From an uncultured Acidobacteriota bacterium (GTDB taxonomy: Bacteria; Acidobacteriota; Thermoanaerobaculia; Multivoradales; UBA5704), in assembly GCA_963770895.1 (NCBI GenBank), contig CAVYRF010000002.1, positions 2,752,001 through 2,816,000 on the forward strand: DNA of 64,000 bases. The letters are read 5' to 3'. The notes below the pieces were generated by a model, which was not told the origin of the DNA, did not search any database, and saw nothing but the letters and a program-made list of their open reading frames with translations. Position 1 is the first letter of the stretch. Every line of letters begins with the position of its first letter. The position numbers were made by a program, and so were the translations under genes. Shown here in pieces: positions 21,621 through 29,554 of this stretch.

Positions 21621-23618
21621 CTAGCGGCGGTTGCCGATGGTGGCGCGGAGGAGGCGGAGGCGGGTATCCAGCTGGTCGGGGGTGAGGTTGGCGTATTTGG
21701 GGGGTAACAGGCGGCGGCTGCTGGATTCGAAGACGGCCAGCAGCTCCATGTAGTCCAGGAGCTCGGTGTCGCGGCTGGGGAAGTAGTCGGCGGCGGCGGC
21801 TGTGAAGTGGTCGGCGGTGACCGGCGGATCGGCTTCTGGCGGGGGCGGCGGGGCGGGGCGGCCGGATGGGACGGGGCAATCCGGCGCGGTGGGACCGGCT
21901 TCGCCGGCGCCGCTTGCGTTGCCTGCGTCGTTGGCGTCGTTGGCGTCGTTGGCGTCACTGGCGGCGCGGGCGGCGTTGTCGTTGGCCAGGAGGATGACGG
22001 CTTCGACGTCGGCGTTGCTCCAGCCGACCATGCGGCGGGAGAAGGCTTCGCGGATGGTGGCGAAGTCGACGTCGGTGTGGATGTGATTCTTGCGCACGAC
22101 GGCGCGGGCGACGGCTTCGACTTCCTCGGGGGTCTGCGAATAGAGGAAGGGGATCTTGCGGTCGAGGCGGCCGGCGCGCTTCAGGTCGACGTCCAGCTTG
22201 TCGGGGCGGTTGGTCATCACCAGGAAGAGGATGCGCCCGCGATTGGTGGTGTCGGACATGAACTCCTTGATGCGCGCGATGACGCGCGAGGAGGTGCCGC
22301 CGTCGCCGTCGCCGTCGGAGGAACCGAAGGCGCGGTCGCCTTCGTCGATGATGACGATGACCTGGCCGATGGCCTGGATGACGGTGAGAATCTTTTCCAG
22401 GTTGCCTTCGGTCGCGCCGACCCACTTGGAGCGGAAGTTTTTCAGCTTGATGGCGGCCAGCCCGCACTCCTTGGCGAAGGCTTCGGCGACGAAGGTCTTG
22501 CCGGTGCCCATGGGGCCGGTGAAGAGCATGCCCATGGGCACGCGGCTGAGGCGCCCTTCGCGCATGTTGCGCGCGACCAGGGCCAGCTCGCGCTTGACCT
22601 CGTCCATGCCGCCGACCGCTTCGAATCCGTGCTCGGGCCGCACCAGCTCGACCAGGCCGTAGCACTCCCGCGCCAGGATCTCGCGCTTGCGGGCGACGAT
22701 GAGCCGCGCCGCTTCGGCGTGCATGCGCTCGCCCGCGTCGGCGGTGGACGCTCCCGCGGCCCCCGTCGCCGCCCCGGCGCCGGCCGCCGTGGCCGCCGCG
22801 CCCTTCGGCGCGAGCAGGGCGCGGATTTCGTCGCGGTCCAGGCCGGCGGTCAGCGCGGCGAGCTTGGCGGCCCGCGCCGCGGCGTCGGCGCCGCCGCCGA
22901 GCAGACCGGTGATGAAGGCGCGGCGCTCGTCGTCGTCGGCGACGGCGGGGGAGGGGGGCGCCAGGATCGAAGCCAGCTGCAGGGCTTTGAGGCCGCCGGT
23001 CAGGGCGGCGTAGCGCGCGGCTTCGGCTTCGTCCAGGGCGGGGTCGGCGAGCTGGGCGACCGCCATCCGGGTGGCCTGATCGGGCATCGGGATCTCTACC
23101 ACCGCGACCTTGGGGTTGGCGACCAGCTTGGGGGCCAGGTCGGTCAGGTTCTCCGCCACCAGCAGCACCACGTTGTCGCCCTTCTCGATCTCGGGCAGGA
23201 AGCTCCAGCGGTGCAGGGTCACCACCGCGGCGCGATCGGCATCGGTCTGGAATGCCGGGTCGCCCGCCGGCGCCAGGTTTTCGGCGTATTCCAGGACGAC
23301 GGCGATGCGGGTGCCGCCGGTGAGCAGCTTTTCGAGGCCCGCCAGGGTCTCTTCCTTGGCGCCGCGCTGCGCCAGCTCGGCCGGAACGTCCAGGCCCGGC
23401 GCGCGCTTGCGGAAGCGGACGCCGGTCGCCAGGTTGTAAAGGACGATCGTCTCCTTGTTGTCGCCCAGAAGCGGCCCGGCCAGGAAGTCGGCGAGCGGCA
23501 GCATGGTCTTGCGGTGCACCACCAGGTCGAAGACGTTGCCGTGCAGCACGAACATCGAGGCCTCACCGCGCAGATAGCGCGCGCGCAGGTCGTCGGCCCA
23601 GGCGGGAAGGAAGCTCAT
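21621..23618 (-). CDS. AAA+ ATPase (degenerate N-terminal module plus intact C-terminal module)
   Basis: [41 protein letters not shown] overlap with the upstream gene. Confidence 0.92.
21925..21957. repeat. 9-bp in-frame tandem repeat (GCGTCGTTG, 3.6 copies) encoding [10 protein letters not shown]
   Basis: Seen directly in the sequence. Confidence 0.8.
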
Positions 23619-24661
23619 AGCGTGCGCTCGAGCCCGCCCAGCAGCTGCTCGGTTTCGCGGCTGGTTTCGCGCACCGCTTCGACGCCGTCGAGCAGGTCGT
23701 CGAGCTGGCCCGACAGCTCTTGCGGCGACTGCATGGTGACGATCTGGTCGGCGATCAGCTGGAAGGAGTTTTCGATCAGGTCGAGCTGGCCTTTGGCGAC
23801 CGTCAGGTAGCGGCGGATCTCCTGCTGCTTTTCCACCCGCTTGGTGACCACCGCCAGGTTGCGCTTGGCGATGCCGGCGGCGGCGGTGTCGTCGCCGGCA
23901 TCTTCCGCCGCCTGCTGGTAGCGGCGCCGCTCGCGTTCCAGCCCCGCCGGGTCGGCGCTCTGGAGGTACGCTTCGTAGCGGGCGCACGTCCTGGCCATCT
24001 CGACGAATGCGTCCACCAGGCGGTCGGTCTTGACCAGCTCGCTCTGCATGAGGTCGCCGGCGAAGGTGGGGTTTTCCGCCGCCAGGCGGCGGATCTCGGC
24101 CTGGCGGGCGGCGAGCGCGTTGACCCGGTCGAGCGCTTCGTCGGGCAGGCCCGCCAGCCGGCGCGCGCGGTCCTGCGCGTCCAGCATCTCCTTGAGCCGC
24201 GCGAAGCGCGGGTCCCACAGGATGTGGCGCAGGCGCTTGCTGTCGGGAGCGAACAGCAGCCACAGCGCCTCGAACCCCAACGTCCCCAGCGCCAGCAGCG
24301 GGTTGGCCGTCAGCAGCGCCGCCGCCAGCCCGCCGCCGACCAGCGACAGGTTGAAGGGGTTGGCAAAGGCCATCTTGAAATACGACGGCGTTGCGCCGCG
24401 GTCGCGGTCGCCGTAGACCGCCCCGCGCTCGGCGCCGGCCGGGGGGCGATAGTCGTCGCGGATCTCGGCCGCGGCGGCGGGCTGCCGGCGCTGCGCCAGC
24501 GGCTGCGCCGCCGTCATCGGTGCCCGCCCAGGCTGCTGCTGCTGAGGCTGGGGCGGCGCCGGCGCGAACGGAGCGCGTCCCACCGCCGGTGCCATGGGCG
24601 TGCCGGCCGTGCCGGCCGGACGCGGCGCCGCCGTCGCGGGCGCCTGCCGCTGCTGCGGCAC
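23615..24661 (-). CDS. Membrane-anchored coiled-coil protein (2 TM); start uncertain
   Basis: NPFNLSLVGGGLAAALLTANPLLALGTLGFEALWLLF followed by a long helical region; coupled to the AAA gene. Confidence 0.75.
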   Translation of the reverse strand: MPQQRQAPATAAPRPAGTAGTPMAPAVGRAPFAPAPPQPQQQQPGRAPMTAAQPLAQRRQPAAAAEIRDDYRPPAGAERGAVYGDRDRGATPSYFKMAFANPFNLSLVGGGLAAALLTANPLLALGTLGFEALWLLFAPDSKRLRHILWDPRFARLKEMLDAQDRARRLAGLPDEALDRVNALAARQAEIRRLAAENPTFAGDLMQSELVKTDRLVDAFVEMARTCARYEAYLQSADPAGLERERRRYQQAAEDAGDDTAAAGIAKRNLAVVTKRVEKQQEIRRYLTVAKGQLDLIENSFQLIADQIVTMQSPQELSGQLDDLLDGVEAVRETSRETEQLLGGLERTL

Positions 24662-24749
24662 GGCATGGGGCTGTTCCTTTTGGCTGCTATCCACGGCAAG
24701 GGTTCCACCGCCCGCGCTGGCCGGGTCCGTAACGGCACCCGCCTGCCGG

Positions 24750-28112: not shown

Positions 28113-28151
28113 AAGGTCTCCTCGATCGTCGAGCGGCGCGGGGGGCCAGCC

Positions 28152-28865
28152 CTACATCGTCTTCTGGCCCTGCGCTGCCTGGGCGGCGGCGCGCTTGGCT
28201 TTCAGCTCCGCAAGCTGCTGCTTGGCCTGCACGTCGCCGGCCTGGGACTTGAGCTGAGCCAGGCGCGAGTCGAGCGACGACTCCGCCAGCTCGGTGCCCA
28301 GGTTGGCCTCGGCGATGATGTTTTTGATGTGATCCCGCACGTTGTCCAGCGCCTTGACTTCGGCATCGACGGACAGTCCGTCGAGCTGCGACTGGATGCG
28401 CATGCGCGCCTGCGCCGACTGCATGCGGGCGAGCATGGTGTCGCGCTCGGCCTTCAGCTTCTTGATGTCGGACTGCACCGACAGCAGCGACTGCTTGGCG
28501 GAGTCGGCGTCGTGCTGCGCCGTGGTCAGGTCGCCCTGCAGCTCGCTCAAGTCGCTTGTCAGCTGGTTTTTCTTTTGAATCAGGATGATCGCGAGATCGT
28601 CCTGGTTGTTCTCGACCGCGACGGCCAGCTCGGCCTCGGTCTGCGCCAGCTCCTGGGTCGTCTGCTTGGTCTTTTCGCCCAGGTCTTCGCGGCGCCGCAG
28701 GATCGCGGCGGTCGCGCTCTTGAGCTTGGAATACTTCTCGATCATCGAATTGATCGCGTTTTCGTAGGCGATCTCGGGATGATCCTTCTCAATATCGGAA
28801 ATCCACAGCGAGAGGAAACCGCGCCAAAGGTTTCCCACCCGTGCGAAGAAACCGCTGCCAGCCAT
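28152..28865 (-). CDS. PspA/IM30-family (bacterial ESCRT-III-like) protein
   Basis: N-terminal amphipathic [15 protein letters not shown]-x-x-P-E motif, long coiled coil, C-terminal QLAELKAK. Confidence 0.88.
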
Positions 28866-29554
28866 CAGGCGCTCCTTTCGGACGACTTGTCAGGCGTTGC
28901 CGGCGCCGCCTTGGCCGCCGCCGCCGGGGCATGCCCGAAGAATTCGAGCACGCGCGCCACCGCGAGCTTGCCGTCGGTGCAAGCCCGTTCCACTGCCTGC
29001 TGCTCCGCCACCCGTTGATCCATCACCTGCTTGATCCTCTGGATCTCCTGCTCGAACTGCGCGATCCGCTGCTGCGAATCGGCGAGCACCTTGCGCGTAT
29101 CGCCGGCGCCGGCCGCCACGTAGGCGTCCAAGGCACGGATCTCCTTGTCGCCGGCGCCGATGATGCGATCGACCGGCACGCCGAACGCCTTGAGCGACGC
29201 CTCGACGATCTGCCGCGCCGGGTCGCTGCCCGCCGGCAGAGCCTGCAGCAGCTCCGCCGCCTTGGTCACCTGCGCCTGTTCCTCCGCGTCGATCCCCGCC
29301 GCGGCATACACCGCGGCAAAGTCCACCTGCCCCCCCGGCGCCGCCGGCGGATCCGTCACGAACGCCGCGCTGCCGTCCGCCACTGCTGCCGATGTTGCCG
29401 GTGTGCCGTCCGTCGCTGTACTACTGTACGGAGCCGCGTCGCCGGAGTTGCCGGCCGTGCCGGCCCCGGCCGCATCGTCGGCAGCCGCAGGTTTGTCGTC
29501 GCGCTCCACGAACAGGCCCAGAACGCTGGAACCCCAACCCTTTTTGTCGCTCAT
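28865..29554 (-). CDS. Hypothetical protein, first gene of the psp-like operon
   Basis: Amphipathic N-terminus [12 protein letters not shown], disordered linker, helical domain and coiled coil ending VLEFF; TGATG coupling to pspA. Confidence 0.78.

Follow-up and report, generated by a model that had tools for sequence, protein, structure and literature searches.

A PspA-linked tandem AAA ATPase operon in an uncultured soil acidobacterium as a candidate system for membrane remodelling

In a window of 64,000 nucleotides from an uncultured soil acidobacterium (GenBank assembly GCA_963770895.1, contig CAVYRF010000002.1, positions 2,752,001 to 2,816,000 of the forward strand; "window" below means this whole stretch), open reading frame (ORF) analysis revealed seven co-oriented genes, g1 to g7, on the minus strand at window positions 21621-29554. 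They encode PspA (g2), a two-domain AAA ATPase (g7), a helical protein with a membrane hairpin (g6), a transporter set with a wall-binding solute-binding protein (SBP; g3-g5) and an amphipathic protein (g1). PspA, g6 and the tandem AAA ATPase make up the core of the system; the transporter genes often accompany this core and have stayed with it through rearrangement, but can be dispensed with. Comparative genomics led Ravi et al. (2024, mSystems 9:e00847-23, PMC11237479) to describe operons of this type, and both the layout and the ESCRT-III/Vps4 analogy are already in print; the logic of a PspA polymer served by a dedicated AAA remodeller, put forward for this window in a first-pass annotation made from the letters and ORFs, is the same as that published there. 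The reading preferred here, to which we give about an even chance, is that the PspA-linked tandem AAA would be a dedicated remodeller, threading PspA and/or g6 to recycle their assemblies. The identities of the genes, the domain anatomy of the ATPase, its intact catalytic motifs and the co-conservation of the genes were established directly and are presented first.

The disassembly of bacterial polymers of the ESCRT-III type (PspA, Vipp1) is still to be explained, and this operon family provides a concrete candidate, namely an AAA translocase, predicted to be catalytically intact, that travels with PspA across deep divergence. To the published description the present analysis adds an exact count of the co-occurrence of close ATPase and close PspA genes, variants that hold the same gene set in shuffled order, confirmation that the first AAA domain is degenerate, and the finding that g6 could not be confirmed as Snf7-like. 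The window operon is a well-defined, intact further example of the predicted type, known from its genes.

The tandem AAA ATPase and its association with PspA

For g7, the Pfam family AAA (PF00004) was matched at residues 364-491 with an E-value of 2.6e-26. The Walker A motif GPMGTGKT (368-375), the pore loop SKWVG (397-401), the Walker B motif IVIIDE (421-426) and a second region of homology with arginine fingers (471-484) were all invariant in 31 aligned homologues, and by these motifs the domain is predicted to be a catalytically competent classical AAA ATPase. It forms the second AAA domain (D2, about residues 326-553) of a protein that begins with a degenerate AAA+ domain (D1, residues 1-270) and ends with a conserved tail of about 60 aa. 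Among solved structures, D2 was matched best by p97/Cdc48 D2, with g7 residues 328-553 aligned to p97 472-702 at E 4.4e-42. Against the NCBIfam models, g7 scored 80.6 bits for CDC48 (TIGR01243, cut-off 802.65), 66.9 bits for PAN, 65.9 bits for FtsH and 43.6 bits for CdvC (NF041006, cut-off 650), in every case far under the cut-off.

A model of D1 was built from g7 residues 1-325 with a 31-sequence alignment (predicted local distance difference test, pLDDT, 85). The model has an AAA+ fold, with p97 D1 as the best Foldseek match (E 7.4e-9), and in the VIA search the p97 N-D1 region was matched at Z 14.9 (root-mean-square deviation, rmsd, 4.2 over 202 aligned residues), with further members of the classical AAA group next in the list (Z 12-14.6). 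No P-loop is present in D1, where FVLHGNVFD occupies the Walker A equivalent and VVLEYAE the Walker B equivalent. Because residues 1-270 fold as an AAA+ domain, g7 has no room for an N-terminal MIT domain, and because D1 begins at about residue 5, it has no N-domain of the Cdc48 type (double-psi-barrel adaptor). On the basis of the model, g7 is best described as a degenerate D1 joined to a predicted active, Cdc48-D2-like D2, and not as Vps4. The first-pass annotation had called the system ESCRT-III/Vps4-like, and for the ATPase, as a statement of kinship, this did not hold, given two AAA domains of which the first is degenerate, no MIT domain, and a score for CDC48 well above that for CdvC; the label is valid as an analogy and wrong as kinship.

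Behind the lid domain of g7 lies a low-complexity, proline-rich insert of about 45 aa (about residues 553-600), which was missing in 29 of 30 aligned homologues, the remaining one (L010) having a different insert at the same place. Part of the insert is an Asn-Asp-Ala repeat encoded by a 9-bp tandem repeat at window positions 21925-21982 (6.4 copies, 81% matches).

By what is known of the family, PspA, a protein of the ESCRT-III fold, would assemble on the cytoplasmic membrane under envelope stress. The g2 product matched PspA_IM30 (PF04012; E 2.2e-19) over nearly the whole profile (positions 2-218 of 220), scoring 70.4 bits where 33.9 is the cut-off, and it is the sole PspA match in the 8.16-Mb genome, which is 94.95% complete. 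Since its scores lie under the cut-offs of the proteobacterial PspA equivalogs (44.8 against 242.95 bits for TIGR02977; 39 against 336 bits for NF007974), g2 is a member of the PspA family but not an orthologue of the E. coli type. Across 24 orthologues the mean column identity was 81%. Searches of the same genome for PspB (PF06667) and PspC (PF04024) gave no match, with the controls matched, and PspF was not searched for. The genome thus holds a single PspA, and its known partners PspB and PspC were not found there.

The C-terminus of g2 (window 28152-28190) ends in K-T-[ML] in 24/24 close PspA orthologues. This tail was considered as a recognition motif specific to the AAA protein and rejected; related K/R-x-[LM]-G-P tails are shared by many PspA homologues of the phylum (loci L083-L113), some of them from genomes that have no ATPase, and the tail is therefore not specific to the system.

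The association of these genes was examined in homologous loci. The best 120 homologues of g7 had 64-76% identity and were nearly all full length, and those with names belonged to Acidobacteriota lineages. A genome scan yielded 80 loci, whose titles named Acidobacteriota in 79 cases and Pseudomonadota in one. Synteny was judged on the 52 loci with at least 6.5 kb of sequence upstream of the AAA gene, the other 28 being too short upstream, and g1-g6 were present in the same order and on the same strand in 48 of them; g1 lay directly upstream of PspA in all 48 of these complete loci.

The exceptions differed in what had been kept. One locus (L035) had g6-g7 only, and another (L066) had g1-g2 and g6-g7 with unrelated genes between them. 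A Pyrinomonadaceae locus (L020, positions 9147-16500) has no g6: the PspA gene (76% identity) immediately precedes the AAA gene, and the SBP-OmpA/permease/ABC set found downstream is divergent (22-36% identity). In the closest relative, from the same family (L002, positions 1235-10001; apparently the same as genome G365, with matching coordinates), 8.7 kb of unrelated genes, including a Cys/Met-metabolism pyridoxal phosphate enzyme and a class I methyltransferase, lay between g6 and g7, and g7 was intact with 73% identity. Among the loci with short upstream sequence, two had no ABC set within 4.8-5.3 kb upstream, namely L041 (g1, g2, g6 and g7) and L043 (g6 and g7), and none of g1-g6 was found within the 4.2 kb available upstream in L076.

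Across 401 genomes sampled evenly from the phylum, a D1 homologue (E<=1e-10) was present in 39 genomes and a PspA homologue (E<=1e-5) in 65. Ten genomes had a D1 of 57% identity or more, and precisely these ten had a PspA of 71% identity or more; the distance between the two genes was 5.0-5.4 kb in eight of them; in one there was an 8.7-kb insertion and in one the genes were on separate contigs. The distribution of this close type is patchy (10/401 genomes), and it was found in none of most sampled families of the same order. Where only a distant D1 was present (28-41% identity), a distant PspA was located within 5 kb in 11/29 genomes.

From the distant genomes, ten loci were fetched. A g6-like gene was found near the AAA gene in seven of them (directly adjacent in most, at the opposite end of the gene cluster in L085 and L086), the SBP-OmpA/permease/ABC set in three, and the AAA gene alone in one. 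Even at 25-32% identity, such diverged variants keep the PspA, g6-like and ATPase genes as a group, in an order that may vary. Two of the loci (L085, 7246-14722; L086, 7228-14575) are arranged AAA-PspA-SBP-permease-ABC-g6-like, with 24-55% identity, and because they hold the set in shuffled order, the same gene set has been kept through rearrangement. g1 was seen only in the seven-gene type and was not detected in the diverged variants.

The co-conservation of the PspA, ABC and AAA genes, which the first-pass annotation had named as a check on its proposal, is borne out by the 48 syntenic loci, the ten close genomes and the shuffled variants. Its description of the machine as self-contained was too strong, in view of the variants without an ABC module (L041, L066, L035 and L043). 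Because ABC-less and g6-less variants both exist, the seven genes are not one obligatory unit.

Operon layout, partner proteins and flanking regions

The coordinates of the seven genes are listed in Table 1. The gene content, order and motifs recorded in the first-pass annotation were reproduced with identical outer coordinates, all seven genes being on the minus strand, and its overlapping stop and start codons were found at three junctions: a one-base overlap (TGATG) at g1/g2 and at g3/g4, and a four-base overlap (ATGA) at g6/g7. The genes are translationally coupled at these junctions. The spacing is 39 nt at g2/g3, 7 nt at g4/g5 and, taking the g6 start at 24373, 376 nt at g5/g6. A promoter and terminator scan found no sigma-70-like promoter, and terminator-like sites were at chance level.

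Table 1. Genes of the PspA/tandem AAA operon, in window coordinates
Gene	Product	Position	Strand	Length	Domains and features
g1	Amphipathic protein	28865-29554	-	229 aa	Amphipathic N-terminus; no Pfam/NCBIfam family above cut-off
g2	PspA/IM30	28152-28865	-	237 aa	PF04012
g3	SBP-OmpA	26475-28112	-	545 aa	Hydrophobic anchor, SsuA/TauA/NMT1-type SBP, OmpA-like domain
g4	ABC importer permease, TauC/SsuC-like	25672-26475	-	267 aa	BPD_transp_1
g5	ABC ATP-binding subunit, TauB/SsuB-like	24750-25664	-	304 aa	ABC_tran
g6	Membrane-hairpin helical protein	23615-24373 (conserved core)	-	252 aa	No Pfam family
g7	Tandem AAA ATPase	21621-23618	-	665 aa	PF00004

The reading frame of g6 is open upstream to 24949, with further candidate starts at 24517, 24595, 24661 and 24694. 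The start MAFANPFNLSL agrees with the start of several homologues, and many homologues have a low-complexity N-terminal extension. The true start is uncertain, because the frame-specific GC content of the gap upstream of the conserved core is ambiguous. The g6 family comprises 792 cluster representatives at E<=1e-3. The g6 model is all-helical (pLDDT 78), with two short hydrophobic helices (residues 6-22 and 25-41) followed by an all-helical domain of about 200 aa that ends in three long helices; the last 150 residues were modelled as a three-long-helix bundle. By hydropathy, a single hydrophobic stretch was found, at residues 11-34.

The relation of g6 to the ESCRT-III superfamily was examined by sequence and by fold. 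g6 itself matched no Pfam family, and neither Snf7 nor PspA_IM30 was among the 25 families listed for 53 diverse members, which cover all families matched by at least two of them (E<=1); seven longer members of the family, possible fusions, contained no Pfam domain. When alignments of 32 and 53 g6 sequences were compared by hhalign with a 24-sequence PspA alignment, the probabilities were 0.1% and 0.6%, and a profile search of the PDB gave nothing under E 0.04. The Snf7 profile, run over the whole genome, gave nothing at g6, and its sole match was at an unrelated site with E 2.2. In the Foldseek search there was no match to the g6 model at E<=0.001, and the best row for an ESCRT-III protein was CdvB2 (9s99_B, E 0.14, TM-score 0.28/0.33, rmsd 14.9 over 162 columns). 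Two VIA searches placed generic helical proteins at the top (Z 11-12), with no ESCRT-III protein among the 50 matches listed in either; BAR-domain proteins made up about one third of the best structural neighbours at Z 9-11, a range that is common for helical bundles. From these sequence and fold comparisons, the "Snf7 homolog with a TM segment" of the wording in Ravi et al. 2024, TM standing for transmembrane, could not be confirmed for g6.

In a language-model look-up, the nearest named cluster to g6 was the Rv2743c (PspM) family (0.87), which is taken as a lead only. An assignment of g6 as PspM was rejected, as this family appeared only as a language-model neighbour and was not among the families matched by at least two g6 members. 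A complex prediction for full-length g7 with g6 residues 45-252 returned a score of 0.00 against a mark of 0.32; it was run without controls and speaks neither for nor against binding.

An alignment of 29 homologues of g1 showed an invariant amphipathic motif at the N-terminus and a conserved, helical domain at the C-terminus, joined by a low-complexity linker that varies. Like g6, g1 matched no curated Pfam or NCBIfam family above cut-off, its PDB profile search gave nothing under E 0.3, and no relative with a known function was detected. Relatedness to PspA or to g6 was rejected on hhalign probabilities of 0.4% and 1.5%, and sub-threshold matches to Pfam coiled-coil families, such as Mod_r in 13/29 members (best E 1.2e-4), were set down to coiled-coil noise. 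At its very C-terminus (about 20 residues; window 28865-28930), the g1 of this window, like that of L003, deviates from the ending ...VARVV..SPKL..P that is kept in nearly all of the other 27 homologues.

In the transporter set, g3 combines three parts: an N-terminal anchor (hydropathy maximum 2.16, residues 6-24), an SBP region at about residues 116-325 (NMT1, E 9.2e-9; Phosphonate-bd, E 3e-7) and an OmpA domain at residues 438-534 (PF00691, E 4.8e-19; 69 bits with a cut-off of 27.2, over positions 2-98 of the 98-position profile). Against SsuA_fam (TIGR01728), g3 scored 68.1 bits with a cut-off of 163.5 (E 7.3e-19). For g4, matches were obtained to BPD_transp_1 (E 4.5e-18) and to the TauC model (E 5.4e-37, 127.7 against 342 bits), and for g5 to ABC_tran (E 1.3e-31) and the model of the taurine ATP-binding subunit (E 1.6e-62, 211.3 against 357 bits). 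Because all scores lie under the equivalog cut-offs, g3-g5 are placed in the broad TauABC/SsuABC family, with no substrate assignable.

Several features were observed in the regions next to the operon. Directly upstream, at 29754-30213 on the minus strand, there are two mutually overlapping genes encoding a toxin of the ParE family (87 aa, PF05016, E 2.9e-15) and a ribbon-helix-helix/CopG antitoxin (75 aa, PF01402, E 3.6e-9), and further upstream, at 32114-34549 on the minus strand, a gene encodes a multi-pass membrane protein of 811 aa with no Pfam match at E<=0.001. Downstream, the stretch 18473-21707 contains an NYN-domain gene (18473-19084), an IS1-family-like DDE transposase gene (20075-20974) and two family-less ORFs, one of which (21000-21707) is convergent with g7 and overlaps its end. 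The GC content of this stretch was 63-66%, compared with 72-77% further out, and it may be a mobile or recently acquired patch adjoining the operon. Over the window as a whole, GC content was 63-77% per 2-kb bin, with a lower stretch of 63-68% (one bin 70%) across 18-32 kb.

Proposed mechanism and alternative explanations

We propose that the operon encodes a PspA-centred module that maintains the envelope, of the kind catalogued by Ravi et al. 2024. As suggested by gene linkage and domain anatomy, g7 would form a hexamer made up of a degenerate D1 ring and an active, Cdc48-D2-like ring bearing the SKWVG pore loop, and this hexamer would thread PspA and/or g6 subunits, leading to disassembly or recycling of their assemblies. 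The ATPase would then be a functional analogue of Vps4 and not its orthologue. g6, translationally coupled to the ATPase, would sit in the membrane by its short helical hairpin and would place the motor or PspA there, and g1, translationally coupled to PspA, would act as a second membrane-peripheral partner. The g3 binding protein is predicted to be anchored in the inner membrane at one end and to bind peptidoglycan at the other, and the TauABC-like importer might, more tentatively, couple the activity to a periplasmic solute or to membrane-wall geometry.

Several points weigh against this proposal. It is drawn from genes, linkage and domain anatomy, and contact between any two of the proteins is itself proposed. 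g7 has no known ESCRT-III-recognition element, with neither an MIT domain nor an N-terminal adaptor domain, and g6 has no detectable relation to PspA or Snf7 in the profile, Pfam and genome-wide Snf7 searches. A second promoter may lie in the 376 nt that separate g5 from g6. In the closest relative, g6 and g7 are 8.7 kb apart with unrelated genes between them, and variants without the ABC set (L041, L066, L035, L043) or without g6 (L020) exist. In five genomes (G337, G281, G160, G089 and G101), a distant AAA gene lies far from any PspA.

The missing ESCRT-III-binding domain and the occurrence of distant AAA genes without an adjacent PspA in some genomes would also be in line with a different role, in which the ATPase is an extractor or quality-control unfoldase of membrane proteins in the style of Cdc48, Msp1 or the ATPase module of FtsH and acts on damaged envelope proteins instead of PspA, and PspA and g6 only seal and stabilise the membrane at the site of extraction. 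The relatives that D2 most resembles (Cdc48/p97 D2, PAN and FtsH) are all unfoldases of diverse substrates, which fits this role too. However, no protease gene is present in the operon, and the strict pairing of close AAA with close PspA in 10/10 genomes, together with adjacency kept at 25-32% identity, argues for a specific partnership. We regard the extractor role as unlikely, and it is the alternative that survives best.

A second alternative is that the operon unites two or three independent modules that share only their regulation, with transport physically and mechanistically uncoupled from PspA: g3-g5 would import a nutrient as members of the NitT/TauT family, g1-g2 would be a stress pair built on PspA, and g6-g7 would form a pair of their own. 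The importer parts do resemble ordinary TauABC/SsuABC relatives, the four ABC-less variants show that the importer can be left out, and the 376-nt gap separates g6 from g5. On the other hand, the SBP carries an unusual C-terminal OmpA domain, the order of the genes is maintained in 48/52 loci, and the SBP-OmpA/permease/ABC set stays with PspA, g6 and the AAA gene even in the shuffled loci L085 and L086 at 24-55% identity. This separation into modules is judged somewhat less probable still than the extractor role.

That the ATPase is a holdase or regulator which sequesters PspA until stress, as in the binding of PspA by PspF in E. coli, is the least probable of the three. In its favour, the canonical AAA+ protein PspF is stated to bind PspA in a passage of a review (PMC7619361), and the genome has neither PspB nor PspC. 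Against it, g7 has no DNA-binding domain and is a member of the classical AAA clade, not an enhancer-binding protein of the NtrC type; its pore loop, Walker B motif and arginine fingers are all intact, which are features of a translocase.

Beyond the dedicated remodeller preferred here, a more far-reaching version may be considered, to which we give as little credence as to the separation into modules. In that version, the operon would be a true bacterial counterpart of the ESCRT-III/Vps4 cycle, with an independent origin from a Cdc48-like tandem AAA. Instead of a passive anchor, g6 would be a second subunit that polymerises or imposes curvature, fixed in the membrane through its hairpin, a role to which its three-long-helix bundle and its BAR-domain structural neighbours point. 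The wall-tethered SBP would sense or set how far the membrane lies from the peptidoglycan, triggering ATP-driven remodelling of PspA and g6 where the membrane comes away from the wall.

Comparison with known systems

Full-text literature searches found no experimental study of a PspA-linked tandem AAA. The closest known system is the operon type of Ravi et al. 2024 (PMC11237479). In the passage that describes it, bacterial PspA is reported to co-occur occasionally with a protein of two AAA+ domains, the N-terminal copy of which is inactive, and the operon is given as PspA, tandem AAA+, TM protein, ABC ATPase, permease and PBPB-OmpA, with ATP-dependent membrane remodelling comparable to Snf7/Vps4 as the suggested function. 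The window operon agrees in PspA, the inactive N-terminal AAA+ copy, the ABC ATPase, the permease and the solute- and peptidoglycan-binding protein, all in one operon. It differs in two respects: the paper speaks of "Snf7 homologs with a TM segment" where g6 could not be confirmed as Snf7-like, and g1 is not among the components named in that operon description.

A passage of the 2025 review (PMC7619361) states that a Vps4-like ATPase appears to be absent in bacteria, and in the corresponding passages of this review and of Makarova et al. (2024, mBio 15:e00335-24, PMC10936438), ESCRT systems containing Vps4 are limited to the archaea and the eukaryotes. The latter also describes archaeal "Halo_adaptin" loci, which pair a Vps4-like ATPase lacking MIT with a PspA-like gene, and related "Meth_adaptin" loci that also hold an ABC-type SBP (ProX). 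Compared by their description, the Halo_adaptin loci share with the window operon an ATPase without MIT beside a PspA-like protein, whereas their ATPases are archaeal and consist of a Cdc48-type N-domain and a single AAA domain, and g7 is a tandem AAA without an N-domain.

With the ESCRT-III/Vps4 system (CdvB/CdvC), the operon has in common an ESCRT-III-superfamily protein, PspA, encoded together with a classical-clade AAA that has the aromatic pore loop SKWVG. It is unlike that system in that g7 has two AAA domains instead of one, carries no MIT domain and scores far under the CdvC cut-off, and in that PspA is not Snf7. The tandem D1-D2 arrangement is shared with Cdc48/p97/VAT, which gives the best sequence match for D2 and the best fold match for D1; in contrast to these proteins, D1 of g7 has no Walker A or B motif, there is no N-terminal double-psi-barrel domain, and the CDC48 score is about a tenth of its cut-off.

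The PspFABC system of E. coli, LiaIH of B. subtilis and ClgR-PspAMN of M. tuberculosis likewise combine a PspA effector with a small membrane partner, and g6 would fill the role of PspB/C, LiaI or PspM. Unlike in these systems, there is no PspB or PspC in the genome, and g6 has no detected sequence relation to their partners; canonical PspF is a transcription activator, whereas g7 is of the classical translocase type. Finally, g3-g5 match the SBP, permease and ATPase models of the TauABC/SsuABC (NitT/TauT) importers, from which the window operon is set apart by a binding protein that is anchored in the membrane and carries a C-terminal OmpA-like domain.

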